Notes: generated by a model from the letters alone, not told the origin. A stretch of DNA of 63,581 bases, filler included, from Neolecta irregularis DAH-3 (GCA_001929475.1; 13 parts of 13 records of this genome joined end to end with filler, not necessarily neighbours in it); one strand, 5' to 3'; shown: positions 18,458 through 41,847, numbered from the whole stretch's first letter. Numbers and translations are program-made.

Positions 18458-19003
18458 CTATTTTCTCCCTTCAACCATAATTCTAATGATTAAGCAGAGT
18501 ACGAGACTGGACTTTTTACAAGTGGTATCCAAATTTGGTCTTTATAGGAGGATCAGTGTACTTGGGCTTTGCAGCGGTGCTGACGGGAAGTTTGAACTGG
18601 AATGATCAGTGCGTTTCGTGCCTCGGCGTACTGCGGCATCTTGAAAGGGCCCGACCATTGAACCTCTGACCATCCATCCTAAATCTCCGCCGCTTCTGGC
18701 CTTCTTGGATCAAAAGGGCGGATGAGACAAAATGACCTTGTCTTGGGAAAATTCGCGGGCAACAGCATCAAAAGAGGTGCCCTGCCCGTAAATACAGCGT
18801 AACAAGGAGTCCAGTCAGACCTCTTGCAGTTTTTCCAGAGCCTGTATTGCTGTGGGATAAGCGGATGCTAGAGCCTGGGTGATGCCTATAGAATGCTTTT
18901 CGCAGAGGATATGGCGGACCTTGAGTGCTTGTGCCGGTTTGAGGGTCTGTTCTGTATCGTCTTGTGGATGAGTCTTTTGTGTTTTGATAGGTTTGGAGGG
19001 CAT
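18458..19003 (-). CDS. PIN4: Parvulin-type peptidyl-prolyl isomerase Par14/PIN4 (5 introns, first is GC-AG)
   Basis: Spliced product [72 protein letters not shown]. Confidence 0.93.
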
Positions 19004-19137
19004 TATGGATGGAGGTTGGAGGTTACCGCCATGCCAGGGGGTGTTATTTTAGCGGGCGTGTAATGGTGCTCTATGCATACAGCCCAAGGGCCTGGATAAT
19101 AACCGGGGCAGGCGACAATCCTGACTCACCGCCAAGC

Positions 19138-19968
19138 ATGGCTTCTTCCCGGCCAGTTCCCATTGGGCGTCCTGCGACTGATGCTGCGGCTCACCGCCGT
19201 ATTGTCGCACTGCATGCGCCGCTCGCCTCTGGGTTCCGCCCGCGCTACATCTCTGAATCAGCGTGGCTGCGCCCAGGTACAATATTTGCCGGCACTCAGC
19301 GGCTGCTTATTGCGGGAAACCTCGTCCACCGCAGCTGGCCAGTGCGCGTTGCAATCGAAAGCACCAGCTGGGACCAAATGAAGGTCTACGGCACGATGCA
19401 GGCCTCGGGTGTGCCCAATACCGAGAAGAAAACAGGAATCACGACTTTCTGGGAAGGCATGGCTGTTCTCTGCTGCACCGACATGACTGATACAACCGCC
19501 AGGAGAGATTATCGATTTCCATAAAATCCCTTGGAAGACCGGGAAGTGGTCGGCTAGCGAGCAGATCGATACCCTCTACTGGGGCAAATTGCCCCCCTTT
19601 GAAAGCATCCAGGTAAAGACCGAAGACGGCGTGACCTACAAAAAAATCCTCGTCGAAGAAGTCTGTCGCACCCATATATTAATGAGATGGAAAGGTGTTG
19701 TCATAGTCTACCAGCCCATGCTGAATGGCAGAAATCGCCTTCATCCAACCTTCCGAAGAAGCCGGTCTTACCATTGCTGGGTTCTACTACGTCAGCTTAC
19801 GACGCGACGACGGGGCTATCGAAGGTTCGTACCCCTTCTTTCACATCCCTCCAACTGCCTGTAGCATTTTATTACGACCCTGCATCAACTCCGTATCAAA
19901 GTCTAGTTCTCTCACCGCTAAAGTCCCAAGATGGAGGGCTGTCGTTTTCAGAGTATAGCTTTCGTTGA
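19138..19968 (+). CDS. GID4: GID complex substrate receptor Gid4/Vid24 (3 introns, first is GC-AG)
   Basis: WLRPG..F.GTQ, W.V.V.I, ITTFWEGEIIDF, ILMRWKE, GLTIAGFYYV.L.R.DG.IE.FYYDP.STPYQ.L.L motifs. Confidence 0.9.
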
Positions 19969-20163
19969 ACAGTTGAAAGAGATCAGGCACATCATCCCTG
20001 CCTGTCTTCACTGCTTTGTACCATAATTTATTACGATAGACGGCACGGGGATTTTTGTCATTCGTATTTGGTACAAAATCACCTTCAATCGCTCTCTAAT
20101 GATGTCTCTAGGTTGTCTTTGTCCTTCGACCAGATAACCGAAAATATGTTCTTGATGACCATA

Positions 20164-20400
20164 ATGAAAACTTTTCTCTTGACTATCCTCTTAATGAATA
20201 TACCGCTATCCATCTCTATCCATACTTATCCTATCTCGCCACCATTCAGTTTTCAAGGACAACATGGACGGCCTTCGATAATACAAAGGCTCCTCTTAAA
20301 TCACCTTTCATATAACGACTACGCACCATCTTCTTGGGTTCAAGCCGAAATTCTCAATTCCTAGAGCCCCAAGGATCGCTTGGAAGAGAATAAACAATGA
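20164..20400 (+). pseudogene. Possible decayed small secreted-protein gene
   Basis: Signal-peptide-like MKTFLLTILLMNIPLSIS followed by early stops; no recognisable homolog. Confidence 0.2.
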
Positions 20401-21074
20401 AATCAATAGCTTCATTATATGAACAGTCCAGAGTTTGGTCCTGGTCAAGTCGAAACGTGTTCTTTATAAGGACCGCTTGGGATCTACAAGGTCTAAATAG
20501 AACCACCTAATTGCGACATTGGGAACCCTCGTCAAAAAACAACCCTTTTTCTTGGGAAGAGGACTATAAAACAAGATTGTAAGTGCCCTTGGTCATACCA
20601 GTACACGTACACTCCCAAAGAGTTCGTGGCTTCTAGAATGTCTTCTAGCGATTGGTGAATTCTGTAATTAAGTCAATGCAAGATTACAAATCAGATCGGT
20701 CCACGGCAGTTGCCATTTAGAATAGAGATTATATTCTGAATAGCTGGTACATTCTGTTGTCAAGTATAATACACACACTCCAAAAAGTTGATATTCATAA
20801 GAATCTCGACTTTCACCTTGACTTATGATGGGCAATATGCTGAAAGAGCATTTCAATGCAGTCTCTGGTCGGCCCCAGCGTTCCAAACCACTGGACCAAA
20901 TAGACCGTCCAAATAGACCGTCCAAGTAGACTAGACCAGACCGGCAATAATTTCGGTCCAGACGGACCAGACCANNNNNNNNNNNNNNNNNNNNNNNNNN
21001 NNNNNNNNNNNNNNNNNNTTAATTAATTAANNNNNNNNNNNNNNNNNNNNNNNNNNNNNNNNNNNNNNNNNNNN

Positions 21075-22617
21075 TCCACTTGTCAACTTAAAGTCCCATA
21101 AGAGAGTTTTTACCTTCAACAAGACAAAGGCTCTCACAATGATACTGGATATCTGATGCCGAACCCCTTTGCTGGGGATCAGCTAAAGAAGTATGTTAAG
21201 AGATCCCCAGGACTGGTAGCTGAAGTATTATTATTCATGGTTAATCTAGTGCTCCTCGCAAAGGAGGGGAGGCATGTGATATGTTAGTGAATGGACTGGT
21301 ATATAATCATGTATAATAGATAGAGAAAGAGGAGGATTTAATGTGGAAAGTTGTCGGAGGACTAGACCTATACCCTAACTGGGATAAACTACTTAGTAGG
21401 GATGAGAGATACTTAGGGAAGTATTTTGGGCAAGGTTCATGTATCTTGCAAAATTACTCCATCTTTGAGGAAGCCTAAGTTCAATAATACAGCAGAAACC
21501 CAGCAATAACTCAGGACACACTAACAAATTATATAAGACATAATACAGCAAAAAGATCGGTCTCGAGAAGCTCCACTGGGATGTACAAAATTTCGCCTAG
21601 GTTACCTCATCGGTTAGTCGTCAACTGGTATCTAAGCAAAAATGTGAAAAATTTGACATTGAATGACACAATAACGGTCCAACACAGATGCCATGTTAAT
21701 ACAGCGAAAAGATCCGCCTCATCAAGATCTTCCTGACAATATAAGGTTCGTAGTATCTTGTCTACTCGGATACGGAGAGAAGTAGGAAAATGTAGGGTGA
21801 CAGGGTGGACTTAGGGAAATATTTGTAAATTAGTATGGCGCTAGTGAAAAAAGGACATTGAGTTGTCCCTGGCGAAAATCGATGGTAGGACGACCTCAGG
21901 ATATATGAAAGGGAAGTAGAGTACCTTTCTGTGGACACAATAAAATTCCATTTGTTACACATAAAATTTTGCCGGTATACTCAGTAGGTTTGCATCTATA
22001 GAGTTTGAAGTCTCAATCTTATATCTGTGTATCTTTGTTTGAGTTCGCTCATAGAGTCATAGCTACTGTGGGGATTGAGGGTGCCTAAGGAAAGACCCTC
22101 ACTGATATACATCCAAGATTTGCGAGTATACTCAGTGGTAGCTCAACAGTAGATATATAATGACTATAGATACTTAGGTGTATCTGGTCATGGTATTTCA
22201 CTGGTAACTCCCTGAAAGATACATCAAGAGTCACAGATTATACTTGGAGTGTGGTTTCTAGCAGATCAAGAGTTCCTATTATTACTGCTAAGTGATATTA
22301 GTTGAACCAGTCTGTTTAGGTACTAACCTATACAGAGATTTCATTGCCCTAGGACTGGGATAATGACACTGCCCTTTAGTGGTCTTGGGATTATTCCTTT
22401 GAGACTTTTACAGGGTTAGAGAACAGGATTTCGAACCTTGACGATTAGCGAGCACAGAAGCTCCACGTATTGTCACTAACCTGCTTCCATAGAGAGGAGT
22501 CGGTTACAGTGCATCTGGTGTCACCTGACCGCGGATCACGTGACATGCCGCTATGAGGTGGAAAACCTAAGTGATACTAAGATTAAAGGAATAAATGCTA
22601 GCTATGAAGAGAAAGCA
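21075..22617. mobile_element. Degenerate interspersed repeat, copy 1 (class unknown)
   Basis: Collinear with 55600-56400 (e.g. gacctcaggatatatga, gggattgagg, ccctaggactggg, tcctttgagactttt); no intact ORF. Confidence 0.7.
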
Positions 22618-22852
22618 NNNNNNNNNNNNNNNNNNNNNNNNNNNNNNNNNNNNNNNNNNNNTTAATTAATTAANNNNNNNNNNNNNNNNNNNNNNNNNNN
22701 NNNNNNNNNNNNNNNNNCGGGTGGGAAGACCCGCTGAGAACAACCATATTCCGCATTATGAGGGATAGATCCGACCGAGATGGTGACGACGAAGGGTTTT
22801 GAGTTGAATACTTTTGAAGCCGCCCGTGATCACGCTTTCGTACTCACACAAA

Positions 22853-23932
22853 ATGCATCAAGATCACGAATACTTTAGCTATTTAACATCATTACCTCTA
22901 TCTTCGTTAAGATCAGAACGTACAGCATTATTTGCAGAGAAAGAACAATCCACTTCCTCACAAATCGCGTTGTTGAAAAGGGAGCGCGATGGAATTGTAC
23001 GGGTAGATTCGGTGACATCAGAGTTCTATTCCTCGTTGTCCAAACTGAGGGGTCAGCTAGTCGAATTGCAGTTGTCAACGCCAAATGTATACACTGCAAT
23101 CGAAGGGTTCAACAATCGCATTGGAGATATTAATCAGAAGCGAGAGCACGCGGTGTTATTATCCCGAGCAAGTGACCGAATAGAAGATCTCCTTTCAATA
23201 CCAAAGCTAATCAATACTTGTATCTTGAACGGTTCTTATGAGGATGCTATTTCGCTATCCCATCATGTTGAAAATCTCGATGTGCGAATTCCCGGATGTC
23301 CAGTCTTGAAAACCCTCAAAAAGCAAATTGATAAAGAGATGCAAGCAATGACGGTCCATCTATTAGGTATCCTCAAAGATGGGTCAAAGCTCCAAACCGC
23401 GTTGAAGGCATGGCTTCTCTGTAGAGTTTTAATTAATATACAGGTGATTAATTTACTCAAACGGACGACAGAATTCCGAGATGACCATCTTCAATATTTA
23501 TTTCTCTTGTATCGCTGGGACTTTTTGCAATTTACAGTAAAGGGCATTCCTCCATCCGATGATGGATATAGATATCTGAAGCGGTTTATCGAGGTAATTC
23601 GAGAATACAGTTTCACGATCATTTCGCAATACAAATCAATTTTTGGCGAAGAAGCGTCAAACTCATTTAGTTCGCATATTCTTTCATTGTTTGCACTTAA
23701 TCTTGTCGACTGGATCAAGAATATGTTGCAGCATCACCTTCACAAGGTTCGAGATGTTGAATTGAAAAAAAACCTGCTGAATCAATTGTTGTATTGTTCT
23801 GGGAGTCTGGCGAGGGTGGGAGTAGAATTCTCTGGGGTAATTTGTGAATTGTTTGAGGGGTATGTTGAAGTTGTCAAGAATCACCGAGAGGTTGTTTTGA
23901 AGATGCAGATGAGCAATATAAATGAACGGTAG
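22853..23932 (+). CDS. COG8: Conserved oligomeric Golgi complex subunit 8 (Dor1 family); in-frame GC-AG intron 23408-23443
   Basis: YLTSLPL..L..E, DLLSIPKLINTCI.NG.YEDAI.L..H, YLKRFIEVIREYSFTIISQYKSIF, LLNQLLYCSGSLARVG.EF. Confidence 0.9.
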   Translation: MHQDHEYFSYLTSLPLSSLRSERTALFAEKEQSTSSQIALLKRERDGIVRVDSVTSEFYSSLSKLRGQLVELQLSTPNVYTAIEGFNNRIGDINQKREHAVLLSRASDRIEDLLSIPKLINTCILNGSYEDAISLSHHVENLDVRIPGCPVLKTLKKQIDKEMQAMTVHLLGILKDGSKLQTALKAWLLCRVLINIQVINLLKRTTEFRDDHLQYLFLLYRWDFLQFTVKGIPPSDDGYRYLKRFIEVIREYSFTIISQYKSIFGEEASNSFSSHILSLFALNLVDWIKNMLQHHLHKVRDVELKKNLLNQLLYCSGSLARVGVEFSGVICELFEGYVEVVKNHREVVLKMQMSNINER

Positions 23933-23992
23933 CATTAATTATGTGACCATCCCCTTGATGTGAACCATTTTTATCTGCTATATTTAAACCCT

Positions 23993-24877
23993 TTACAGCT
24001 TCAATGTAATCTCCCGGAGGACACTGTTATCCAGACCCAAACTCTTGATGCATTCGAGATATCTCTTGGGAGATTCTCTTCTTAAATATTTCAACATGGC
24101 GGCCCGTTTGTGCACTAGTATCCTCAACCTTCTCGCATTATGTTTATCGTGGTTTTGGGTTTTAACATGATTTCCTAAAAATATGATTTTAGTGGTCATC
24201 ACGGCAGCTGGGAATTAGTAGGGGTTATCAAGAGTTGAAAACTCACCTTGCACTTCAGGCGATCCTGTATCACCTGGCTTGCGACTAAACCTTTCGATGG
24301 CAAGTTGAATGTTTCTTAGGCGTAGAGTTTTCGTATTTGAGTTCCGCAGGTCCATAATTCGTCCAATGGCATCTCTTTTGTTGGATTCGCTATCAAATAC
24401 TGTTCTGAGATCCCCAACAATTCCCAAGTCATCCTTTGCCGCTGAGGTGACGCTCTTGTCTATTTCCTCTTGTAATGGATCAAATCGTAATGCTTTTGCA
24501 AACTTGCAAGCTTCAAAGGTTTTTCCCGCATCTGTTGCTCCTCGAATCCAAGATGTATGATTTGGCCAATATTGTGGAATGTAATTTACCGGTAGAGCTC
24601 CATCTGTTTTCTCAACTGAGAATGAATATAGATCTGATTGACGAAAAAGGGTCTCTGTAAAAGCAGTTTTAACGCCGAATATCGGATCTGATTTATTCTC
24701 GTGTTTCTTTTTGAGGATCTCAGCTCGTCTCTCTTGGTTTTTCTTGCGTCTACGAACAGCCAGGGAACTTTTGTATTTTAGGTTGAGGGAGGTGGATGTG
24801 TGGAATTGCGATTTAAAAGAGAGGAGAAAGGGAGATATGGCTGGACGAATACCTACGGTTTGAAAAACTGGAATCAT
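23993..24877 (-). CDS. MRPS28: Mitochondrial ribosomal protein uS15m (yeast Mrps28-like)
   Basis: DTGSPEVQAAV.T.KI, HDKHNARRLRILVHKR..MLKYLR; basic N-terminal presequence; one GT-AG intron. Confidence 0.9.
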
Positions 24878-24977
24878 TGTACATGAAGTTGTGTGTTTTG
24901 GAGGTTACCGCTGGAAACGCTAGAGGGAAACTTTTTTCCTGTTCAACTGATAACCGCCCGAGTCACATCAACCCAAA

Positions 24978-26598
24978 ATGCTGATTCTCGCAGAAACAGC
25001 TGCTGGTTACGCCGTCTTCAAGGCGAAGGACAAGATTTTGAAGAAACAGAATGAACTCGTTTCCGAGTTATCGACGGCACAAGGCGCCGCCAACATCTTG
25101 AAGCTGAAAAAGTTTGTGAAATTTGAAAACACCATAGATGCATTGGACAATGTAACTGCTCTTATTGAAGGAAAAGTATCTGGGAAACTGGCGAATATGC
25201 TTGGTGATTTAAAGGGGGAGAAGAAGACTAGTCTTGTTGTTTCGGATCCCAAGCTGGGTATGTATTTTCTATTTCAGACTAATAAGCAAAGGGAATGCAA
25301 TCAATAAACTACCTGGTCTTGGGTTCTCTATTATTTCAGATTCTACTACGCAGGATTTATATCGTGGGATCAGACAACATCTCTGTTCACTGATCGACGG
25401 ACTGACACCAACTGATATTTCGACGATGTCACTTGGCCTTTCGCATTCCTTATCACGTCACAAACTGAAATTTTCGGTGGATAAAGTGGATACCATGATT
25501 GTTCAAGCGATCGCTCTTCTCGACGACCTTGATAAAGAGTTAAATATATATGCTATGAGAGTGAAAGAATGGTACGGATGGCATTTCCCTGAAATGGCAA
25601 AAATTATCTCAGACAACCTTGCATATGCCCGTGTAATAAGAGTAATGGGTACATTTCAAACAAAGAGAAGGTTGTTTTACATTTAGGATTCCGTACAAAT
25701 GCCGCATCTTGCGATTTATCTACGGTTCTTCCTGAAGAGCTTGAACGTGTTATCAAAGCGACTGCTCAAGTTAGCATGGGAACCGAAATCACTGGAGACG
25801 ATTTGTTGAATATCAATCTTTTAGTGGATCAAGTTCTTTCGCTGTCAGAATATCGAACGCAGTTGTCCGAGTACCTGGTAAACCGGATGACAGCCATTGC
25901 TCCAAATTTGACTGTTTTGGTTGGAGAACTTGTTGGCGCGAGGTTAATAGCTCACGCTGGATCTCTTATGAATCTTGCTAAACAACCCGCTTCGACTATT
26001 CAGATCCTTGGGGCTGAAAAGGCATTGTTTAGAGCGCTCAAGACAAAACACGATACACCTAAATATGGACTAATTTATCATGCCAGTCTTATTGGCCAAG
26101 CCTCGACCAAGAATAAGGGCAAAATTGCACGAATATTGGCAACCAAAGCTTCGCTGTCTCTACGTGTCGACGCACTATCTGAAGATAAAGATCTGGGTGC
26201 TTCTACCGGTATTGAAAACCGCGCAAAAGTTGAAGCTAGATTACGACAACTTGAAGGTGGTCGAGATGTTATTCCGAGTATCTCCAACGGCGGGAAAAAA
26301 CAGGCGAAATTTGAGATTCGCGAGGTCAAGGGATACAATGAAGATGGCGATTCTATAATGGTGGATAAGAAACGGTCGGGGAAAGATTTGACGAATCATG
26401 AACCAAACGGGATATTAGAAACAAGAAAGAAAGAAAAGGTACGATTTTGTGAAGCTCTTGTAATTATTAGAAGCGAAAGATCGAGAAACAAGCTGGAGAG
26501 GAGAAAAAGAAAGAAAAGGTACGATTTTGTGAAGCTTTTGTAATTATTAGAAGCGAAAGATCGAGGAACAAACTGGAGAGGAGAAAAAGAAAGAAAAG
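24978..26598 (+). CDS. NOP58: Box C/D snoRNP protein Nop58 (3' end in gap)
   Basis: [80 protein letters not shown] tail. Confidence 0.96.
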
Positions 26599-27311
26599 GT
26601 ACNNNNNNNNNNACAGAGCTAGGGACCACAAACATACATGATAGTGGACTCCAAAAATTCGAATCGGAGTATTTGGATGAACCGCTCGAATTGCTGCGAT
26701 AGCACTGGTCCGCCTTAAGATTAATGGCTTTCGAATACAAAACACTACCATGTGTGTCAGTGGTATGAATGAAATATTCCTCAATCGAAGAAACAGAAAA
26801 GCTATCTATCTTAATGCTTCTGCAGAGCACATCCTCCACGCTGGCAGAAAGTTAAACTGAGCTAAAAAAGGAAGAACAGGAAGTCCCAAACCCCGGCATT
26901 AACCTCCCGACTATCGAGGATACCCTGGGGGAGAAATGATGAACAAAGAATGGGCCTCTTCTACTAATCGGGAGATGCTTTGAATTCTGAAGGCGCATAC
27001 TTGGAGGAACCGAGGAGAAGGGTTTTGAGATTTTTATCTGAAATAATAATATCTGACTTTAAGATGACTGGGCAGATCTTGTTGACTGTGAGCCTTCAGC
27101 ACGCGTATGACAAGCTCGTCCAATATAAAACTATTTGTTCTATTGATAGAATTACGCTGTAAACACGAGGTAATTACGTTCGTGTCTCACAGGGGTTTGT
27201 TTATTTATCCACGTGACAATGACGTTTACGCGAAAAAAGTGTATCACAAGATTTAAGCCTCCCTTGGCACCCTATCACTTCCGCTCCCTCATTTTGTGAC
27301 TTGATCCCACC

Positions 27312-28493
27312 ATGTCTACATCTCAGACTACAGGGAAACGAGCGTCAAGCCCTTACTTACAGAATACAAGTGCAGAAAATACTACTACACAACCGAAGCC
27401 TCACCAAAATGCAAATATGCTTCAACCGTCGTTCGCACATCAGCTCCCAACAGCTGAACAGAATCTCGGGTTCTATGGGAAAATGATCGACTCTATCGGG
27501 ACCTGCATAGGTTCTATGGGCTCAATCCCCTGCTGTTTTCTTTGTCCAAATCCATACAAATCAGGCAGATAATTTCTCCCCCAGATTTGTATTCTAACTT
27601 CGCGGCAGTCTCCGAAGGCCAGATCGGTCTGGTTTTAAAGTTTGGAAAATATGAACGAGCTGTTGATCCAGGTCTGTGTAAAGTTAATCCTTTATCCGAA
27701 CGCCTTCAAAGCGTCGATATCAAGATTCAGATTGTCGAGGTTCCTCAACAAGTACGTTGTAATATCATTGAAATTTCCTTAACAAGTAGACTTGCATGAC
27801 AAAAGACAACGTAAACGTTCTCATCAACTCAGTTATATACTATCATATTACATCGCCCTACAAAGCAACCTTTGGAATCACAAGTGTCAGGCAAGCTCTA
27901 ATTGAAAGAACTCAAACAACGCTCCGACATGTTCTTGGGGCCAGGGTTCTTCAAGTATGCATGTCCCAAAATCCTTTCCTTTAATTCATGAAGGATGTTA
28001 TTGAACGAAGAGAAGAGATTGCACAGTCAATCCAAGAAATCATCAAGGACGTTGCTGAAAATTGGGGAGTCAAAGTTGAGTCCATTCTCATCAAAGATAT
28101 CGGGTTCTCTCTTGAACTTCAAGATAGTCTTAGCATGGCTGCTCAGGCCAAGCGAATTGGAGAGTCTAAAATCATTTCTGCGAAAGCAGAAGTCGAGAGT
28201 GCAAAGTTGATGAGACAAGCGGCTGATATTCTCGCCAGTAAACCAGCTGTATACTCTCCTCGCCAGATTCTTGCTTATTCCACTAGATGCAAATTCGATA
28301 TTTAGAGGCTATGCAAGCGATGGCTAAAAGTTCTGGTTCTAAAGTCATTTTTATGCCTTCCGTTGGACATCCTCAAGACGCTGCAGATGGAAGTTCAGCA
28401 AATTTAAATCCCCCGAGGTCTAAATACGATTTCAGTAATGACTTTGACCAAACGATTATGAGTGCTACTCTTGCTGAAAATATCCATAGTTAG
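27312..28493 (+). CDS. Stomatin/SPFH (band 7) family protein (4 introns, first is GC-AG)
   Basis: IPCCFLCPNPY, VDPGL.KVNPLSE, CMTKDNV, ALIERTQTTLRHVLGARVLQDVIERREEIAQSI, AMQIRYLEAMQAMAK. Confidence 0.92.
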
Positions 28494-28720
28494 GCGTTCT
28501 AATTTTGATGAAAGTTGTTATTATACTTGTTTCTCTTCAGGTCTTTGGACCAGATTTGCTGGTATTATTTTCTGCTTATGTAATGTTCTATAATAAGAAA
28601 TCTATCTAATGTCAATGCGCTCGTGACCGCAATATAAATTCCTTCCTCCTCTCTCGCTGTACCTTGCAATTTCATTAGATCTTATTAGTAACACAATCAG
28701 AGGGGTTTCTCGCAGGATAA

Positions 28721-29039
28721 ATGTCCTCGAGCGTTGCTGAAGAGTGCACGCCCTTAAAAAAAAAATATGATAATTGCTTTAATGATTGGTACTCAAACAA
28801 GTATATCAACAAACTCTCCTTATGCTTACGATCTAGGTTTCTCAAAGCCAAAAGTTTGACTAATGAGTGCGAGGAAGAGTTTCAGGAATATAAACTGTGT
28901 GTTTTGGTCTGCGATGTTGCTGTTAGATTTTAATAAGATATAGAAAGCTATGAACACCAAGGGAATCGACAAGTTGCTGGATGACGCACGTAAAGAAGCA
29001 CCTACAGAACGCGGCGCACGGTTTAAGGACAATGATTAG
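28721..29039 (+). CDS. MDM35: Twin CX9C mitochondrial protein Mdm35/TRIAP1
   Basis: [30 protein letters not shown]..C...F.EYK.CV..A...KGI..LL..ARKE; 2 GT-AG introns. Confidence 0.93.
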
Positions 29040-29335
29040 AGTATAGCGGAATCACTATAGAGCGTGGACCAGTAGGCAGCTTTTTTTATGGCTCTGCCGG
29101 TTGAGGAACGCCCTCAGTCAAAGGTCTAAGAAACCTTTTAATAGTATCATATTACACGGCGCGTGCATACGTTAAAGTTTCCCGGGATTTGGGTAGGGTA
29201 TCATGCGGACCCGTCGGGCTCGACATTGTGGTCAACCATGACGCTTGTTTACGTCAATTTCCCTCCCTCGACTCTTAGCTAGCCATACTTAAACACCTCA
29301 TTCTCCCTTATTCTCCACTTCCCACCACGCTTAGC

Positions 29336-31839
29336 ATGGCAGAGATGTTCGAAGCAAGCAAATTGGAAACACCAAATCTTCCAGATGCTCGAATGTCTCC
29401 AACAACTGCAAATCAGATATCTCTCAAGAAATCCAGCTTTGCAATGCTGAATTCAATGAACTCTTTTGATGTCGCAGATTCTGGAAAGACATTGGATGAT
29501 ATCTACAATCGTGATTTCAGAGTCAGTCGTCTCAAGAATGCTCGTGGCTCCATGCAAGCTCGTATTACAACTTCTGCAAAGAAAACCGGTCTTCGAGCCC
29601 AGTTGGCTAGCTTGGGGCTTTCGGTAATGGGGTTCTTCCTCTCCATCAAACCATGGTTCAAATTTATGTTCTCTCTTCTCCAAGAGATTTCTTATTCAGT
29701 GGTTGCGAACCCCTCCATGTTTCTTACATGTATGCCATATATTGAATATATGCTAATTGAAATCTCAGCTCCAACCAATTTTTTGATTCTGGTTTTCGGG
29801 CTACCACATGCTGGAGCAGCTCTACTTGTTCTCGCTCCTTTGCTCTATCTTTTACTCCATAATCGATGGTTAATAAATATATACAATAAGCTGTCATCAG
29901 AGCAGGGCAACCTCTCCCTCATCAACTGGTACGATGTCAGCAGAATGGCTTGCTCACAATCAGGTCTGATCCAGAGATGTATAGTAACCAGCATGACGAC
30001 TTGATTCGACGGGCAAAGAAAACCATGTGTATGAATGTAGGTTAATTCAAATGCTCACTGCCACAGCTGCACATCGTTCTACAGCAGAAACCAAAGATAG
30101 TGCCAAGTTCAATATCGATGTTGCTCGGTGGCTCTTACTAGTCTCTGGTATCATGTATGAGAGGTATGTCTTTTTCCTTTTTCGCATCATTAATGTCCGT
30201 AGAGATACCAACAAAGCTTTAGAAGCTACCAAAGCTGTATGATCCACCTCTTACTCCATCTGCCGAATATAGCCAATCTTTTAGTATTACGAGTCTCAAG
30301 ACGACCATTCCTTGTCTTTTGCGGGACTTCGTACTCAGGAAGACATCAAAAATTTTGTTAGAAGCAAACAAGGCGACAAAGATGAAACATTTTCAATGGT
30401 CTCTAGCAATGGGAACTATCATTTTAGACCAGAGAGCCGAATTGAACAACAAACGCGCATCTGGGACGTTCATTTCCGACCTATTAGTCACATGAAACGA
30501 CTCTATAGTCCTTTTGCAGGAATCTGGTGGAATTCTGGGCAGGATCCCTTCATCATTGTTGCGTTCAAGGGAACCACTCCAGTTGATTACTCAGAATTTC
30601 TAGTTGATGCAAGCTTTCAGAAAACAGATGCTTCTGCTTTCTTATGGGGGAACTGTCATCAAGGGTTTTATGATGCAATTTTTCCGCAAGCTCGCCTTTA
30701 AAATGACAGTGATGACATATTAGAGATGCCTATGATAGTTCTTTGCATGGTGGTGGTAATGAAGAGTCGCCTTATGGAAGCCTTATCCAAGCGATTCGCA
30801 TCAAAGCCAAGGAGCTACATGCAGCCATAAAAGAGAAATATCCATATATTAAGATCCCAGTTTATGTTACTGGCCACTCTCTTGGCGCCGCTATGGGTAT
30901 ATTATATGCTTTGTATCCACGGTGACCGTTAGCTTCTTTATTCTATGCTCGGCTTTTGAAAGCTCCACATGATCTTGGACCTCTCGTTGATATACGCCAA
31001 GCCTATGTATATGGTTGTCCGGCTGTAGGTGACGTCGAATTCGCTCAAGGTAAATATTGTGACCCTTGTGAAGTTAAACATGTTAGGATTCGCTTCAGAA
31101 ATTAACTCATCGTACTCAAATCACTTCGGTCTCTGGCGAGTAATCGACGACAGCGATATTGTTACTAGACTTCCTCTCAATTTTAGTAATCCGCTCTCGG
31201 GAAGACCATCCAGAAACCCGTTCGTGAAACACGGCTCTCTCGTTGATTATTGCGTGATTGGAAACGGTGTTCGTGTCTTTGGTGACGGACGAGAACCTCA
31301 AGTTTGCTGGAAGATGCCCAGGTCGGCCAATGTATATCTTTTCCTTTATGGTCGTAACTGACGAATAGGTTTTTGAGATGTCTGATCCTACTACTGCCCC
31401 ACTCAGAAATCCTTTTAAGGGTGTTATTAACTGGGCTAAAAAGTTTATTCATGGAGGTAATGCAATGCGAGTAGAGCTCGCTTGTCCCAAGCCTATCAGG
31501 TGCATCAATGGTCCTTTGGGCTTTAAGTTGACTCTAGCAGAGATCATTTTCCTACTGAGTATTTCCGCAATCTTTCCAAATCCGAAAACTATTTCAAATT
31601 TCACGATGAATTATTTGCCAAATGATTTACATTGCATTTCTCGACTCTTCGTCAATTTCCCAAAATATTCTTATTGCATCCTTGTGTTTTTTTGGTTAAT
31701 GAATGTGTACATGATGTGGATGAAAAATATAGCAATGGAATGTGCACAACAAAATATGAATAGTATCATCAAACAAATAAGGCTGCGTTTTGCAGTCTCC
31801 TCAAAATATTTTCATGAAATCCGAAAACGTGAAATTTGA
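29336..31839 (+). CDS. Class 3 lipase-family protein with N-terminal membrane segment (about 9 introns; 3' end uncertain)
   Basis: IIVAFKGTTP, CHQGFY, YVTGHSLGAAMA nucleophile elbow, YVYGCPAVGD, RVIDDSDIVTRLP. Confidence 0.85.
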
Positions 31840-32148
31840 AATTTATTTCGCATAATTCCAAAAAACCTGCTTTGAAGTCCCTCGCCAATTTTTCAAAATG
31901 GCAATTCGTTATCACTGTTCTCCTTACATCATAAACGGGCGTGTCAAATCCGAATTCCATGAATTACCTAATTTCATGAAATTCTTGCTAGGTCGGGCTA
32001 AAAGAAGTGGCTACAAAATGCATCCTTAATAATTTATCTGCAAGTTCATGATTTCAAAGAATAGCTTCATGCCATAGTAAATATCAATCGACGAGTTCCA
32101 TTTCTCGTTTATCGATCGATGATTGCAGATTAATTGGAGGTGGTATTC

Positions 32149-33082
32149 TTAATTTGTTTTGTGCCCTTCCGGTGATAGGAATGATTCATAAGCGCTTAAC
32201 CAAGCCTGCTTCCCTCCGGTTTCTATTATGTCTCCATGGCACGGAATAACTCTATTGAACTCCCAATCAGCGACAGTACTGGCATCTCTTTTCATAGCCC
32301 TAAAAATAAGTAACAGATCCGCAAAGACCACCACACGCTTTATCTTTTGCTCCTGCCATTAGAAGCCACCTATGTAGGCGACTATGTGGGCTGAAGTGCG
32401 TATGGACAAGCCTTGCAATTCCCGAAAGAGCTGCTTCTTTCGATCCATACTGCTCTGTAGCTGGAAGGTTAAATAACTGACATCAGTCAATGAAAAACTT
32501 GACCAGGCAACCTACTAAATCTGCTTGAATTAATGTTTTTGAAGATTTGTGAAGGAATGCGATGTCCTTGTTGATATATCCACTGAAATAGGCAACTTCA
32601 AGCTAAATAATGAGTCTTAAAAAGTTAAGGTCATGCACCTCATCTTCATATCCAACTCTCTTATCATTTGAATGTTTTCCATAGACATGAGCAAATTTCA
32701 ACGTGCTTTCAATCTTCTCTATTCCATCCACTCCGACAATGAGTGCGTCAGGATATTTTTGACTATACTGTTTGACTGCACGTTAATTTCAATGTATGAC
32801 GTCATAGCTAACGGTAGAGATGATGTTCGGTATCCGGTGCAATGATATATCTCAGCTTCCCAAGCGAGTCCAGCTTTTCTTTGATGCTGTCTTCAAACTC
32901 AATTGGTGAGAAAAGAAGCACATCTCCATTGCGTAACTTGATGCTGTGGATTAGTTGCAGTGCTTTGATGCGGCATGCGCAGTGGCTCGCCCTCCGAAAT
33001 GAATAAATCCAAATCTCTCAAAAGGCCGACTGAAGGTAGCAATTTCTGGCGTGATATGTCTAAATTTTGCACCAATAGACAT
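32149..33082 (-). CDS. DUF4336/metallo-beta-lactamase-like conserved fungal protein (5 introns, first is GC-AG)
   Basis: TFSRPFERFG..HFGGRATAIKL.NG, YIIAPDTEHHL, FLHKSSKTLIQADLLFNLP, WEFNRVIPCHGDIIE. Confidence 0.8.
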
Positions 33083-33592
33083 TGTTATAGATGACGTGAT
33101 GGAAGGTGGACAAGCAAATCATTACGATCACCTCGTGGCGTTGTGTCACACCATTCACATGAAATTGATCCTACAATGAAAAGCCATGTCGAATAAACTT
33201 TATCCATTTGGTCCTCGTAGCTAATTCATCATATTTTCTTCTTTGATATTTTGCATTATAATGTTATATTAGATGATTCTCGACGCATTGAAAGAGCGAA
33301 ATCTAGCTATGTCTCATGATTCAGTCCTTAAATTAATCAAGTGTCTTCATATATATTAATCCTCAATCATTTTGCAGGCATCTTAATTGCCAGATTCCAA
33401 GCAGATGAACTTTGTTCAATCAAAAAGAAAGCTCACACAATGACTCTTTCCTCACTTCCAAGTATTTATTTCTATGAAGAGATAACTACAACAAGATCAA
33501 TGCTATCTATGCAATCCATGCCACCAAAAGAAAGAGCCGAATCCATTAATATCTCCCCATATAAGGCACGAACATGTACCAGAAAATAATTG

Positions 33593-34711
33593 TTAAAAAC
33601 GGGCCAAGTCGCTCATAGACCGTGGTGCCATGCTGGGAGGAAGACCATTTACTGTGACTAGAGGGAAAGTGGGAGTACTTCCTGAACTGTTTTCCTGAAC
33701 AAGATCTTCCTCAAGCATATTTGCAAGATCATCAAGGTCATCTTCGCTTTCATTGGCATCGGATTCTTCTGAATCATCAGATTCAGATGATGACTCCTCT
33801 GATTCTGGAGACGAGGATCTCTTAATTTTCGGTTTTCGAATCAGTGGCGCACGCACCGCCTGGGGTTCTTCTGTGTTCCTTTCAGGAATAGCATCGATAT
33901 CCATCGGAATAAGTCCACTAGGCATCTCTAGTCCGAGACCTTTAGGAGAATCTGAGCAGGTAGGCGGAGGTGTGGGCAACTTTTTGGATGAAAGTACGGT
34001 TTTCTTTCCGGTTGGTTTCCTGACTATCGGCGTTGTTTTTGGTGTATGTTGAACTGCAGCTGGTTTCTGAACTCGCTGGGCAGATGATTTCTGGGATATC
34101 GACTTGAAGTTGGAGGAACTGTTATTTTGAGGTGGACTTGCAAGTAGCTTAGTTGACTTCGTAGGCGATCGTTTGGTGCCTTGCAAAAAAGGAGATCGCT
34201 TCCCTGACTCTGTGTCGGACAAAGTTGGAGTTGTTCGAATAGGGAACTGAAGAGTATTTGATGTCTGTCGTGTCTTGCTTCGATCCTGATTGAATCGCAT
34301 AAACATATCTACAATTTCGAGCGTGAATTTCTGAAGGAATAAGCTTTCAGCTAAATGAGGATGACAAACCCCAGTTTTTGGGTCAAAAACAAGACAACAG
34401 TCAACATCTCTCCCATGAGATGGAATGCCAGATGTGAACAGATGAGGTCGTTCCGACTTGAATGTAAGAGTCAAATCAGCCTGACAAAGCACCTGTGTTG
34501 AGTTCCACTCAACATCAAAACTTTTTGGACCCCCAGACAACTTACCAGGTCGTCTGGTATCTATCGATTCGGGTTTGAAGTTATCTAGGGCCAGATCAGG
34601 CTCAAATTTTAGGAATATGGAGTGTATACATCTCACTGAAAGCAGCTTCTGACAATCACCGCCCGCTGTATCGAAAGACTTTCCCAGCTCTACAGTATAG
34701 CGAGCAGGCAT
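33593..34711 (-). CDS. EAF-domain transcription elongation factor (ELL-associated factor-like)
   Basis: Spliced SVRYNFKPESID..RPG, DCCLVFDPKTGKFTLE; S/P/K-rich middle and acidic C-terminus; three in-frame GT-AG introns. Confidence 0.75.
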   Translation of the reverse strand: MPARYTVELGKSFDTAGGDCQKLLSVRCIHSIFLKFEPDLALDNFKPESIDTRRPGKLSGGPKSFDVEWNSTQVLCQADLTLTFKSERPHLFTSGIPSHGRDVDCCLVFDPKTGVCHPHLAESLFLQKFTLEIVDMFMRFNQDRSKTRQTSNTLQFPIRTTPTLSDTESGKRSPFLQGTKRSPTKSTKLLASPPQNNSSSNFKSISQKSSAQRVQKPAAVQHTPKTTPIVRKPTGKKTVLSSKKLPTPPPTCSDSPKGLGLEMPSGLIPMDIDAIPERNTEEPQAVRAPLIRKPKIKRSSSPESEESSSESDDSEESDANESEDDLDDLANMLEEDLVQENSSGSTPTFPLVTVNGLPPSMAPRSMSDLARF

Positions 34712-35156
34712 CCCCGGAACAATCATACTAACACGAAAGGCGGTGGAAAGAAAAGCCGTGGTGGGGCAGCGGGCAATCGGAAGACCCGCCCGGCTTCCTC
34801 TTACGGAAAACACCGGAGCGGCATTAACCAGAAAGGTTCTACATTCCTGCGAAGTGTATGATTCCTTCACCGTCATACACTTCGCAGGAATGTCTATATT
34901 TAAATTATCTTTATCAAGACGAGAGAATTTGTACTCAATATCTGGAAGAGCCTTTTTTACAATTCTTTATATTTGTTTGTCACAATTTTCTCTTTAGCGT
35001 AACTTAGTTTCCAACGATTTAGGAATACCCAAGGTCTTAAGCTGTTGCAGGAGCCTGTTTCCTAAACCTTTCTAAAGCTATAAAAAGGATATCATTACAA
35101 TTGTTGCAGAGCAGCCATTAATGAAGAACAGTCATTTATCTTCAACTCATTGTTCG

Positions 35157-35260
35157 TCTTCGGTAGTATAGTGGTGAGTATATTCGCCTGTCATGGATAC
35201 AGGAAATCATATCCTCGGACAGTCTCGCGAATGACCCGGGTTCAATTCCCGGCCGGAGAG
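35157..35260 (+). tRNA. tRNA-Asp(GTC) with 32-nt intron (35194-35225)
   Basis: Acceptor TCTTCGG/CCGGAGA, anticodon stem TTCGC/GCGAA around CTGTCA, T-loop GGTTCAATTCC, downstream T-run. Confidence 0.93.
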
Positions 35261-35532
35261 TAAACTTTTAATTTTCCCTACGACCTTTCCTGACACTATA
35301 AATAAGAAATTTTCATGACAAATACACGATCGAACTCTTCTATATCAATTAGGCCATGACTAACAGGCCAATGTTGTGATTAATGTTCCTTATTTTCACA
35401 AAGCAATGGCATTCAAAAATTTTAAATCAGTTATTGTAACGATGTCTGATTTCCTGTCGCTCAATGAACTCTCTTTGTTGTCACAATTCACTTGAAACTG
35501 AGGCATGGTTGAGGAAATTGGATGATGTCTTT

Positions 35533-35709
35533 TGTAACGATATAACTGGTGTATTACCGGATATATCTTACGGATGTAGCAAGTAAAGGCCTCTAGATAG
35601 GGTATATCAAGGTTTAGCTAGCATATCTCAACCTAAGCGTCTAAGGCCCGCTGCTTAGGTTAAGGAAATCAACCCGATCTTATTTGTACACTACGCTTCA
35701 CGAATTACA
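35533..35709. mobile_element. Solo LTR, 177 bp, with 5-bp target-site duplication
   Basis: TGTAA...TTACA termini flanked by TCTTT on both sides (35528-35532 and 35710-35714). Confidence 0.8.
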
Positions 35710-35992
35710 TCTTTCATCCTCCTTCGCATAAAGCATGTGGCATTAGAAGAGTTTCACTTTGGAAGCCATTCAAACTTTTAGAATCGAGCTGTGGTCCGAT
35801 TTGCTTGAATGGCGAAGGGCAACGGAATATAGAGAGATTAATAAGCTAGTTCACGGGATTGCCTAGTCAGATAAATGTAAGATCCATACTTTAACCACCT
35901 GACTTCCGGTTTAAATTTCAAGTTACTGAATCAATATTTGGTGAATAATGAAACCAAGTCAAATTAGGATATACATATACATGAAGATTTGT

Positions 35993-37339
35993 TCAAACTT
36001 CCTGTGCATAATTGAACAACAAACTCACACTCTCTCCATTGTGTGTCCTTCTTATCGCCTCTGCAATGATTGGTGCAACATCAAGAACATCAAGCTTAGG
36101 ACAAAGCCGTTTATGCTCGTCCTGGGGAACAGTGTTACTGACAATGATTCTATCTATTGCACTCGCATTAATGCGCTCGATTGCATCTCCAGAGAGGATT
36201 GCATGGGTGACGAGACCGTAAACATAAGTTGCGCCGTTGTCTTTGAGAGTTTTAGCTGAGCGGGTAATCGTGTTAGCCGTATCTACCAGATCATCGATCA
36301 GCTAGTAGAGTATTAGTCAGTAATGATGGGATATCATACGATTGCAACTTTTCCGCTGACATCCCCTACGAGCATCATATGAGCGTTCTGACGATCGTAG
36401 ATTTTCTTAGGTCTACGTTCTTTGTGTATAAGTGCAAAGTCCATGGCTAAGGTCAGCTATATTAATGAACATTAACTTGCACAGAGTGTCGGCAATAGCA
36501 GTGGCTCTTTTGGCTCCTCCGGCATCAGGACTCACGATGACAGCGTCCTGATAATCAGGAATTTTCGTTGTGATAAATTTTTGTAGCAGTGGTTTTCCGT
36601 AGAGGTTATCGACTGGGATATCAAAGAATCCTTGGAATTGCGGGTCCTATCAAGCAATAGTTTTTATCAACGAGCAGAGTGCAAACATGTAAATCCATGG
36701 TAATGATATGATCCGCCCCAGCACAAGTCAATAGTCCAGCTACTAGGGTTCCCGCTTGAGCAACCCATTCTCTATAAATGGAATTTCTCGTCTTTGGTCC
36801 CTCGGGAAATATTCTCGGTGGATCCTCTGGAACTTCTGACTCTTTTATTCCATTCAACTGCTTCTTGGTAGCAGCACGGTCGAATTTGTCAGTCACAGGA
36901 GTTGGAGGCCGTGAGTTGAAACTATAAAAGTCTCTGTGTGTCAATTCAGGAGCTCTGGCAAGCGGGGCGCCGGCCTTCGAATATGGAATATCCGGCTGCC
37001 GAGAGTAGGGAAACACTGGAACAACAGCTGTGACCTTACTAGCCGATGCGGTTTTACATGCCGAGATTGTAATGAGAAGTTCCATTAGATTGTCATTCAG
37101 CGAAGTTTTATGACTTCCACAGCCGGGACTGACTACATAGACATCTTTACCTCGGACTGAGTCGCGTATATTGACCAAAGTTTCATTGTTACTGTTATTT
37201 CAGCAGCATTCTGGGGAATGAGCAAGTAAAACCTAAACTTGGACCGCTCAACTTGGCCTTCTCGTATACCCAGCCGGAAACAAATATCCTGAGTCAAAGC
37301 CGGGTGGGAAGACCCGCTGAGAACAACCATATTCCGCAT
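35993..37339 (-). CDS. Ribose-phosphate pyrophosphokinase with internal insertion (Prs5/Prs1-like; 4 introns, one GC-AG)
   Basis: [86 protein letters not shown]. Confidence 0.93.
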
Positions 37340-38582
37340 TATGAGGGATAGATCCGACCGAGATGGCGACGACGAAGGGTTTTGAGTTGAATACCTTTGA
37401 AGCCGCCCGTGATCACGCTTTCGTACTCACACCAAATGCATCAAGATCACGAATACTTTAGCTATTTAACATCATTACCTCTATCTTCGTTAAGATCAGN
37501 NNNNNNNNNNNNNNNNNNNNNNNNNNNNNNNNNNNNNNNNNNNTTAATTAATTAANNNNNNNNNNNNNNNNNNNNNNNNNNNNNNNNNNNNNNNNNNNNC
37601 TGCAAGCAGCACATGTGATAGAATAACAGTGTGAAACAGCAAGGCACTTTTGTCAGCTGGCAAAATTTGAAATAAACGTACAAATTTCTAAGATTCATCT
37701 CGACAGTCAAAAATATCGCCAAGAGCAAGTACAAATCTCACAAGCGCAGGCAAAATCAAGAGATTATTGAACAGTTGTCAATAGAACAAGGGAATATTTG
37801 TTGATTGTTTTTGGCAAATATAGTCTCACAGGATCGTGGAGACTAAATAGAGATAGCTATTGGTATTTCTACAAGGGCGACCTAGCCCTTCTTTTAAAGA
37901 CATTTCTAGCAGAGCTCACATGTGAAACAGCCGGTCCAAATAAAAAACTCAGTTGAGACAAGAGGAGGGACATATGTCCGCTGTGACAAGAGGAGCCTAG
38001 GAGGGTCACGAGCATGGAAAATTATCGGATAAACCAAGAGAAAGCCACTCCAGCAAAATTTACTGATAGTAAATATATGTAAAGAGGCAAGTTTATGACA
38101 GGGAGCGCAGGAAGAAGTAGAAGAGCAGCAGGCTGAGGCAGATGGAAGAATAAGAAATAAAATAATTGCTTCATAATATCCAATATCACGTGATATTCAC
38201 CTTGGTCGGGGACGGGCATCACATTTGACGAAAATTTGTTTTTCACAGACTCGGGATGTGACAAAGGGATCATGGAGAAATCGAGAAATGAAACATTGTT
38301 TACATTCGAAGTAACTTATAGAAACTATACTAATATTTCCACTCACAAACTCTACCCACAAGACGAACAAAGAGGGCACTATCTCTGCAATTGTTTAAAT
38401 TTATACATTCTGAATTTGTCAAACGTTTTCTTTGCGAGCAGTGGAATGGAGGGCCAAGGAGTTTTGACAAATGCAGTGCAAAATACCTTTTACACCATTT
38501 TCGTTATTCATTCTCGCTCTTTTTACAAATCAAATATAGTTGCATGTGATCCTCTAACCTTTATAAACTTGCGTGGAATAAT

Positions 38583-39803
38583 TCAACCGTTGTTCTAATT
38601 GCTTTACTTGCTCATTAATATCTATATTAAAACACTTTTTCGCCCAAACCTTAGCATCTTGTAATCGGACTATAGCTTCGTTACGATCATTTAAAATCTA
38701 GATGTCAAAAGACAAAAATTGGGGTTAAAGTACGTCGGCGATGATGGCGAGGTTAATGTTAGCGGTAGCGCAGGTTTGGTTACAAGTTTGATCTTTGAGT
38801 TGTCGGGGAACATTTTTAGCCTGTTGGATTGCTTTTTCAGCCCATGACTTTGCAGATTCCTGACGTTGTGCAAAGGTTGAGGAATCAGATACATCAGGGC
38901 CAGCGCCAGAGATGGTGGCGGCAATACTGTTCACTTCTCGTAAGCGTGGGATTGGAGGGATGGGGATGCGTACTGAGGTGTGCCGAGGTGCAATTTGGGG
39001 GATTGATCATGTCCAATGCTTTGAGGAAGAGCGGGGCAGCGAGACTGGTGGTTAGATGAGCCACACAAGTGGCGATACATAGGCCTATTTGTTTCTCGAA
39101 AGTATTCCGCGGCGGTGGCCATGAGCGCTATCGTCTCTTCCGTGGGCAGGAGGTGTCTATTCTGGGCGCGGTGAAGCAGCAATGTGTGTATGGCCCAGTG
39201 GAAGTGGTCGTCTGCAGCCTTGTAGTCTTTCAAGCACATGGCGATGTCTGCGAGGCTGACAGCGAGCCGAACTGCCCTGGCAGTTAACCTGTTGCTGTCT
39301 TGGGCAGATGCAGGGCGCTGAGCATCTGCGAGCAGCGATTCAAGGATGGTGCGAGCGTTACCGTATCTGCCAAGGGATTTGTAGAGGAATGCGAGTTTGA
39401 TATGGATACCGGCGGTGGTGTCTGCGCGCGGATCGAGGTTGTGGTCGTGGGCTGCCTGAATGGCGTCGTTGTAGTGGCAGATTGCGCGTGGGTAGTCGAC
39501 AGCGTGTTCCGCGTAGTAAAGTGCAAGACGCAAGTGCTTGGAAACTGCATTCAATTTCACAGGAGAAGCGGGAAATATACCTTCTTCGGGATACGGCGAT
39601 AACTTATGCCAGTAGATATAGGCTGCCCCCGACGCAGCAGCAAGACCTACGCCTGCGAGGATAACAGCGGTAGCACCATGCAGTCGGGCCTTCGAATTCG
39701 CAGAAAATGTGCGCAGACCGCGTACATCTGGTGGTCGCAGCAACCGGCGGGAGGCGAGTCGTAGTCGCACAGAGGTCATAGAGGATGGAAACACGCGATT
39801 CAT
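38583..39803 (-). CDS. Mitochondrial TPR-like membrane protein (Mgr3-like); boundaries approximate
   Basis: Arg-rich presequence, one TM segment, YPEEVSKHLRLALYY, helical repeats, A.SWAEKA..C...C.TA.INLA. Confidence 0.6.
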
Positions 39804-40094
39804 CAATAAATCTCCCTGACCCGTCTCCTCAATCTCCAGACATCCATTTCCAAATGCAGTGGTATACTTGTGATAAAATGTAGTATCTATCTTGTGCAAT
39901 GGTGATACCCTTGAAACCCTACAACCCCTTGTCGCCGTTGCTTGCCAACCCATTCCAAAGGCACCAGAATTGATACTATCATACTCGCATAAGCAAATGT
40001 CGGCATTTTTATGGGTGAAAAAGAAAGTCCTATCTATCTAAAAGCAAAGTTGGAAGAACAAAATGGTGTGACTGGATAATGTACAAAATATTTT

Positions 40095-40178
40095 TCCGAA
40101 CTGCCAGACTTGAACTGGCGACCAAAGGATGACTAAATCCATTACAGTCCTCTACGCTACCAGCTGCGCCAAGTTCGG
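40095..40178 (-). tRNA. tRNA-Tyr(GTA) with 11-nt intron
   Basis: Minus strand CCGAACT/AGTTCGG acceptor (C1-G72, A73), GAGGA-CTGTAA-[tggatttagtc]-A-TCCTT, GCCAG-TTCAAGT-CTGGC. Confidence 0.92.
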
Positions 40179-41412: not shown

Positions 41413-41847
41413 TTATTCATTGATGATGGCCATCAGTTCATGATCTCGGAATAACGTATACTCCTAAAGGATTAATAATCAACTGAATTACGAGGGAAGA
41501 AACGTCATCTCCGATTTTGATATTGTTTCCACCGTATTGGGGAAGCACGACACGATCCCCGCTTTTTACACCAGGGACAACGAGTTTCCCATCCTTATTT
41601 ATAGCGCCTTGTCCCACAGCGATGACAGTTCCCTCAGAGAGTTTTTCCATAGACTTTTCGGGCAAGAAAATTCCGCTGGAAGTTTTCTAGGTATTTGTTA
41701 AAAATATAATTCACGGAAATAGCCACCTGGTTTGCCTTGATCCTTTGAATAAGTACACGATCAAAAAGGGGGACAATAGATTTGACGGACTTGGCAGCGA
41801 TAGACGACTAGACCTGTGAACGGGGAGACATACTAGTGTCATACCAT
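41413..41847 (-). CDS. HSP10: 10 kDa mitochondrial chaperonin (3 introns)
   Basis: SIVPLFDRVLIQRIKA..KTSSGIFLPEK, GTVIAVGQG, GDRVVLPQYGG, EYTLFRDHELMAIINE. Confidence 0.95.

Follow-up and report, generated by a model that had tools for sequence, protein, structure and literature searches.

Introns that begin with GC instead of GT are a minor class in fungi: GT-AG is reported to account for 98.7% of fungal splice-site pairs (PMC7072748), and three fungi annotated with the guidance of RNA sequencing were found to have about 99% GT-AG and about 1% GC-AG introns (PMC4084796). Here we analyse seven candidate GC-AG introns in a 63,581-base stretch of DNA (the window) from the ascomycete Neolecta irregularis, which is made up of 14 short contigs chained by N44-TTAATTAATTAA-N44 linkers, and in which the share of GC-AG introns is several-fold above the fungal norm. 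Sizeable shares of such introns have been described for Emiliania huxleyi, in which GC-AG was found in 56% of 241 hand-mapped junctions (PMC4028052), and for the pelagophytes Aureococcus (about 14-17%) and Pelagomonas (about 14%; bioRxiv 10.1101/2024.10.30.620910). In both cases the authors attributed the excess to the very GC-rich genomes of these organisms (PMC4028052; bioRxiv 10.1101/2024.10.30.620910). A different variant has been reported for Oikopleura dioica and Eurytemora affinis, where GA-AG outnumbers GC-AG and reaches 3.2% of the supported junctions in one of the two (PMC7072748). Such variants matter for annotation, as the gene predictor Augustus is reported not to recognise GC-AG introns (PMC5677156).

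Based on the evidence described below, we consider it on balance probable that most of the seven candidates, about six, are genuine U2-type GC-AG spliceosomal introns, which would then make up about 5-10% of the introns in the window, versus about 1% in other fungi. They resemble ordinary fungal introns of this type in that they start with GC, end with AG, are short, and have a branch box and a YAG acceptor, but they differ from them in this share and in their donor flanks, which are no nearer to the consensus than those of GT donors. With E. huxleyi and the pelagophytes they have in common a sizeable proportion of GC donors (here counted within the window), an unchanged AG acceptor, and genes that are mis-modelled by predictors limited to GT-AG; however, they occur in an ascomycete with introns of 32-50 nucleotides (nt), in a window with a GC content of 39-48% (in 4-kb bins) and a genome of similarly ordinary reported composition. 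As in O. dioica and E. affinis, the second donor base would have been loosened in a lineage-specific way, to the extent of several percent, but the variant here is GC instead of GA and comes without special flanks. The blind spot of Augustus has its counterpart in two public gene models of the window, P0151 and P0271, which put GT-AG alternatives in the place of GC-AG introns; if the local share holds genome-wide, however, such damage would be much commoner than where GC-AG introns amount to 1%.

The published assembly of the N. irregularis genome comprises 14.5 Mb at 199-fold coverage (N50 16 kb, GC content 44%); both DNA and RNA were sequenced from collected fruiting bodies, and the genome has been used for studying the genetic basis of complex multicellularity (PMC5309816). 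The words 'intron' and 'splice' are both absent from the main text of that paper, whose supplements may describe the annotation method. A search of the literature found no report of GC-AG introns in Neolecta, and likewise none for Pneumocystis.

The seven candidate introns and their boundaries

Each of the seven stretches starts with GC, ends with AG and lies at the coordinates given in the first-pass annotation; their lengths are 36 (PIN4), 46 (GID4), 36 (COG8), 44 (stomatin), 38 (lipase), 35 (DUF4336-like gene) and 34 nt (PRPP synthetase). In agreement with the first-pass annotation of this DNA, those of PIN4 and COG8 are in frame, being multiples of three without stop codons, and the other five alter the reading frame. 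Introns divisible by three and lacking stops are reported to make up 9.2% of the GT-AG and 13.3% of the GC-AG introns of fungi (PMC7072748), and the PIN4 and COG8 cases are therefore not odd in kind. The further claim of that annotation, that the seven are real introns, can be kept in graded form. Those of PRPP synthetase, COG8, stomatin and PIN4 are firmly predicted to be GC-AG introns, with junctions fixed to one codon by homology; those of GID4 and the DUF4336-like gene are probable; and for the lipase, which has a GT rival and is the least certain of the seven, we only lean towards the GC model. In terms of the protein products, removal restores a homolog-colinear sequence at the exact boundaries with codon resolution in four of the seven, GID4 is consistent with this, and the lipase is weakly supported. 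None of the seven donors (GCATCA, GCATGG twice, GCAGAT, GCAAGC, GCATGC and GCAAGT) is like the donor motif of U12-type introns, [AG]TATCCTT. As a reference for splice signals we use a set of 62 curated GT-AG introns of the window.

The COG8 intron (23408-23443, plus strand; 36 nt, GCATGG..ATACAG) was examined with an exhaustive profile search for homologs, which found 695 relatives at E <= 0.001; the closest among the best 150 of these is only 37% identical. In a MAFFT alignment, the 12 columns that are encoded by the 36 nt are empty in all 149 homologs, and the stretch is the sole query-specific insertion of at least four residues in the whole COG8 open reading frame (ORF). A motif-blind test, in which donors and acceptors up to 45 nt away on each side were combined in all possible pairs and each product was scored against the homolog profile, points to the same boundaries. 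Among 1798 stop-free pairs, the top score of 324.5 bits is shared by four equivalent placements, and the only canonical-type one of these is GC..AG at 23408-23443. Reading through the stretch gives 304.7 bits (rank 432). A word-based protein search with COG8 returned only the window's own protein.

The first intron of the stomatin gene (27565-27608, plus strand; 44 nt, GCAGAT..GGCAG, branch box TCTAAC) could be compared with 34 full-length-like orthologs (320-410 residues) among the 119 relatives listed besides the window's own protein. The motif PCCxx[CF]PNP[YF]K.V stands directly before the SPFH domain in all 33 pattern-matched sequences of these 34; one ortholog reads PCCIICPNPYKSVS in the motif region, and NPY is found within the first 160 residues in 31 of the 34. 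The product of the GC model reads PCCFLCPNPYKSVSEGQ, and that of a 41-nt GT rival PCCFLYLYSNFAAVSEGQ, so that the CPNPYK motif conserved in the fungal orthologs is preserved solely by the GC model. The public model P0151 takes a GT donor and a 98-nt jump, which deletes 18 residues including the conserved motif. The mean blastp scores over the 34 orthologs are 415.5 bits for the GC model, 393.8 for the 41-nt GT rival and 371.5 for the public 98-nt GT model. When the motif-blind test was applied here (1384 pairs), 27565-27608 was the sole canonical-type boundary in the best-scoring class, and in a control (1294 pairs) the GT..AG intron at 27955-27993 was recovered. It may be added that P0151, named 'Nucleolar protein 58' (784 residues; 24978-28496, plus strand), fuses NOP58 with stomatin across an N10 gap, and skips the start of stomatin together with its conserved, cysteine-rich CPNPYK segment.

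For the PRPP synthetase intron (36447-36480, minus strand; 34 nt, GCAAGT..CCTTAG, branch box GCTGAC), the upstream exon aligns with residues 133-185 of human PRS1 (E = 4e-16) and the downstream exon with residues 187-217 (E = 0.006), and the codon split by the intron corresponds to residue 186. No canonical pair results when the junction is moved by one base in either direction, and with the neighbouring GT donors, residues that align would be lost. A like continuity in Pfam coordinates (64-88 | 88-183) is seen at a GT-AG intron elsewhere in this gene, which served as a control. The first intron of PIN4, the Par14 gene (18850-18885, minus strand; 36 nt, in frame and stop-free, GCATCA..CACAG), was placed by comparison with human Par14 chains alone. 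Exon 1 aligns with chain 3ui4_A up to residue 19 (E = 0.14; the alignment covers the VRHILCEKH motif) and exon 4 begins at residue 46 (E = 4e-9). The gap between these anchors is 26 chain residues, which is exactly the number encoded in the spliced model; without splicing there would be 38. Among the frame-keeping GT-AG pairs listed for PIN4, the sole donor lies 34 nt upstream, within the conserved VRHILCEKH.

In GID4 (19457-19502, plus strand; 46 nt, GCATGG..CGCCAG), the upstream exon ends at position 56 of the Pfam profile PF09783 and the downstream exon begins at position 58, with the split codon filling position 57. A GT-AG rival at 19465-19507 (43 nt, donor GTTCTC) also keeps the frame, with one extra residue, and needs a GAG acceptor, which is found in 1 of the 62 curated GT introns; the splice signals, with positions +1 and +2 excluded, favour the GC model 752:1. 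The Pfam scores of the two models fail to separate them (26.9+33.2 versus 30.3+31.9 bits), and among solved structures there was no match for the upstream exon and an alignment of the downstream exon that begins at residue 6. The first intron of the DUF4336-like gene (32944-32978, minus strand; 35 nt, GCATGC..CCACAG) is required for joining the ATG exon to exon 2 in frame. The canonical-type solutions with a donor at most 20 nt away are all GC-AG or AT-AC, and the nearest frame-keeping GT donor lies 52 nt upstream. The intron scores 10.0 on our intron model, inside the interquartile range of the GT introns (8.6-14.7), and has an ACTAAT branch box 7 nt from the CAG. The identity of the gene comes from its last exon alone, which matches PF14234 (E = 0.014); no Pfam family match was obtained for exons 1-4, which include the exons flanking the GC-AG intron. 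Finally, the intron of the class-3 lipase gene (30686-30723, plus strand; 38 nt, GCAAGC..TATTAG) is required to keep the frame. A word-based protein search for lipase orthologs returned only the window's own protein, and solved structures gave nothing for this junction.

Share of GC-AG introns and the splice signals around them

Besides the seven GC-AG introns, the region at 18.4-37.4 kb contains 32 of the curated GT-AG introns, namely four in PIN4, two in GID4, one in an S15-like gene, four in NOP58, three in stomatin, two in a small CHCH gene, nine in the lipase, four in the DUF4336-like gene and three in PRPP synthetase; 30 more come from the rest of the window. Among curated introns, the share of GC-AG is thus 7/39 in this region and 7/69 in the whole window (10%, 95% interval 4-20%). 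When the totals of our gene finder serve as denominators (132 introns with GT only; 146 in all with GC allowed), the share drops to about 5% (approximately 7/139-153). If the rate were 1%, the binomial probability of at least seven GC-AG introns would be 6e-6 among 69 introns, 2e-4 among 120 and 8e-4 among 150. A number of models were left out of the curated GT set as dubious: 19953-20039 and 20071-20111 in GID4, 23999-24036 and 23954-23989 in the S15-like gene, 27470-27510 in stomatin, 30665-30723 in the lipase, 32166-32200 in the DUF4336-like gene, three GT introns of an EAF gene, most introns of the gene at 37906-40142, and all introns of the merged model at 41413-43502.

The curated GT introns are 32-50 nt long with a median of 38 nt, and the lengths of the GC-AG introns, 34-46 nt, fall within this range. 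The 5' splice site is very weakly specified, and the donor, branch and acceptor signals are all weak: beyond the GT itself, the donors of the 62 curated introns hold 0.70 bits of information at +3, 0.49 at +4, 0.31 at +5 and 0.23 at +6, and the exon side holds 0.24 bits at -2 and 0.34 at -1. A YTRAY branch motif is present in 33 of the 62 GT introns, versus 27% in shuffled sequences, and the median distance between the branch A and the 3' end is 9 nt. Five of the seven GC introns have YTRAY at 6-15 nt from the 3' end, those of PIN4 and the lipase being without it, and all seven have a YAG acceptor. The GC donors have A at +3 in seven of seven cases and G at +5 in five of seven, which matches the local GT consensus, GTA[T/A]G.

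Elsewhere, GC donors usually carry near-perfect AG|GCAAGT flanks. At the seven GC donors of the window there is no sign of this compensating consensus: their flank scores lie between the 15th and 92nd percentiles of those of the GT donors (Mann-Whitney p = 0.67, with the low power of n = 7), and they match CAG|gtAAGT at 2-5 of seven positions, compared with a mean of 3.2 for GT donors. This agrees with the first-pass annotation, according to which most of these donors lack such compensation. Its description of the donors as weak is correct in absolute terms, but they are no weaker than the GT donors of this organism, and its suggestion that introns may be defined mainly by length agrees with the tight 32-50 nt range and the weak 5' splice site, although as a mechanism it is something that we infer.

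This mechanism would be intron definition, in which the major spliceosome pairs both ends of the intron across a short and fixed distance and may depend little on base pairing of U1 with the 5' splice site. With little reliance on U1 pairing, C at +2 would cost little, and a T-to-C change at this position could thus escape selection without any need of near-perfect flanks. A wider reading, which we put forward tentatively and with less than even confidence, is that the spliceosome of Neolecta tolerates C at +2 genome-wide, so that at least 5% of the introns would be GC-AG, without compensating flanks and at an ordinary GC content; this tolerance may be tied to the definition of the ultra-short introns by their length, and U1, U6, U1C or Prp8 may have changed as well. 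There are no small nuclear RNA genes in the window.

Alternative explanations and implications

Several observations weigh against GC-AG introns being as real and as frequent as we propose. The stomatin GC intron scores 0.2 on the intron model, where the 5th percentile of the GT introns is 4.9. The denominator is uncertain, as we selected the 62 curated GT introns by eye among the predictions of our own gene finder. In addition, candidate in-frame, stop-free GT-AG introns lie hidden in long ORFs, at 29730-29768 and 7875-7910 (both plus strand); the true number of introns would therefore be higher, and the GC share lower. Three tests that make no use of homology did not distinguish GC from decoy dinucleotides: when introns were sought by motif alone, there were, at scores of at least 10, 70 candidates for GT and 17-45 for each of the other dinucleotides, with 27 for GC; a dynamic-programming gene finder that was allowed GT plus one other dinucleotide produced 13 GC introns versus 9-22 for 14 decoys; and a strict ORF-joining filter left nine GC loci without a GT solution, versus 6-18 for the decoys. 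GC candidates outside the genes checked by homology are consequently untrustworthy. The codon and Markov coding scores are weak as well, at about 0.08 bits per codon in frame. For the lipase, a GT-AG rival at 30665-30723 (59 nt) preserves the frame as well, and it is this intron that the public model P0271 contains. All seven GC-AG introns are located on two of the 14 contigs, and none of the 30 curated introns elsewhere is GC-AG (Fisher p = 0.016). Moreover, the window was flagged for looking unusual, which brings in a look-elsewhere effect.

The last two of these points, the clustering and the way in which the window was selected, lend weight to the view that the GC-AG introns are mostly real but that the window is a local outlier in a genome with an ordinary share of about 1-2%, the cluster then being the product of chance and of window selection. 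A conservative count of 5/150 fits with this, as its lower confidence bound is 1.1% and its P value is 0.018-0.047 at rates of 1-1.3% (0.018 at 1%). However, seven sites at a rate of 1% remain improbable even with n = 150, GC introns elsewhere are undetectable without homology, so that a count of zero is weak evidence, and with a 5' consensus as uniformly weak as this, it is plausible that C at +2 is tolerated throughout the genome. The restriction to two contigs may in fact be one of ascertainment, homology having been checked mainly in the flagged region. We therefore regard a purely local excess as unlikely, while giving it real weight.

Another view is that the proposed splicing is wrong for several of the seven, the 36-nt pieces of COG8 and PIN4 being lineage-specific coding insertions and the lipase and GID4 using GT donors, so that the true count would be three or fewer. 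COG8 and PIN4 are indeed open through their 36 nt, PIN4 was compared only with human Par14 chains, and the lipase and GID4 have frame-keeping GT-AG alternatives of 59 and 43 nt, with Pfam bits that leave the two GID4 models unseparated and a public lipase model that takes the GT donor. Yet a coding insertion in COG8 would need to start with GCA, to end with CAG, to have a common intron length of 36 nt and to contain a TTAAT box; it would be the only one against 149 homologs, and reading through it costs 19.8 bits against the profile. The GID4 rival depends on its rare GAG acceptor and loses heavily on signals. As for the lipase, the 59 nt of the rival are outside the 32-50 nt range of the 62 curated introns, and the splice signals (again without +1/+2) favour the GC model 105:1. 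P0271 deletes the seven residues FYDAIFP, and the rival intron removes residues that are matched by the Lipase_3 profile: this profile aligns from position 1 to 41 through HQGFYDA (12 bits, E = 0.2), and the match is lost from an exon that is truncated immediately before the G codon of HQG, a little short of the GT donor. Taken together, these results make so low a count improbable. It is also conceivable that the expressed introns are GT-AG, and that the C at +2 comes either from a mistake in the assembly or from one allele at a site polymorphic for T and C in a field-collected fruiting body, given that the window chains short draft contigs and that the assembly, with its N50 of 16 kb, was obtained from collected fruiting bodies (PMC5309816). 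The 199-fold coverage reported for the assembly argues against base errors at the donors (PMC5309816), each of seven independent errors would need to be a T-to-C change at the second position of an intron, and the surrounding coding sequence gives clean translations of conserved proteins, all of which makes this explanation very improbable. We therefore retain the reading that most of the seven are genuine GC-AG introns, and infer from the genomic sequence that these are spliced in vivo.

If the local share holds genome-wide, N. irregularis would be a fungus of ordinary base composition in which one intron in 10-20 starts with GC and the usual compensation is absent. This bears on how 5' splice sites are recognised in introns of about 38 nt whose signals are all weak, and, if true for the whole genome, Neolecta would provide a natural fungal model for the checking of the second intron base by the spliceosome. 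There is also a practical side: prediction limited to GT damages the public stomatin and lipase models, and errors of this kind could affect inferences about gene content in the context of multicellularity.

Other features of the window

Several further GC candidates were not counted. The one at 58193-58232 follows an ABC-transporter fragment and the sequence downstream of it is not ABC-like, and those at 42033-42067 and 42387-42426 are products of gene merging across a plus-strand gene. Homology support is lacking for 32370-32411, 35072-35112, 20305-20345, 57954-57996 and 63355-63396, and also for a GC..AG candidate of 40 nt at 39045-39084 (minus strand), which lies within a long ORF, has a CTAAC box and a CAG acceptor, and scores 12.8 on the intron model. 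Of the two hidden in-frame GT-AG candidates, each of which combines a GTA donor with a branch box and ends in a CAG acceptor, 29730-29768 (39 nt) lies in the N-terminal exon of the lipase gene and 7875-7910 (36 nt) in an alpha-mannosidase-looking gene; we presume both this second intron and the gene name from yeast motifs.

The lysine-rich tail of NOP58 contains two near-identical GT-AG introns of 32 nt (26439-26470 and 26519-26550, plus strand), which are 80 nt apart and adjoin an N10 gap at 26603-26612 that is separate from the linkers; these twins are either a tandem duplication or an assembly artefact. The linkers carry stops in all six frames and are found at 1845-1944 and at 11 further places. 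The contigs are of 1.5-11 kb, the contig at 22718-37499 measures 14,782 nt, and adjacency in the window need not mean adjacency in the genome. Two of the proteins encoded on this 14,782-nt contig are publicly listed under Neolecta irregularis DAH-3.

GC-rich low-complexity stretches are present at 492-1823, 4579-5316, 12183-12752, 53347-54530, 59144-59537 and 62144-62713. They are open in several frames on both strands, as in GTCCCTGGTCCC repeats, and will thus confuse any ORF-based search for introns. On the plus strand, 57059-57498 and 57924-58202 encode fragments that we take, from reading of their motifs, to belong to an ABC transporter; they comprise the region of the ABC signature and a piece ending in ...GYVKPG, after which the expected Walker A continuation is missing, so that the gene could be a pseudogene or the contig could be broken here. 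Rfam identifies three transfer RNA (tRNA) genes, at 35157-35260 (plus strand), 40095-40178 (minus strand) and 47170-47251 (plus strand). ARAGORN finds two of these three, one as Leu(TAA) and the other with a four-base anticodon, and the gene at 35157-35260, with its 104 nt, may hold an intron.

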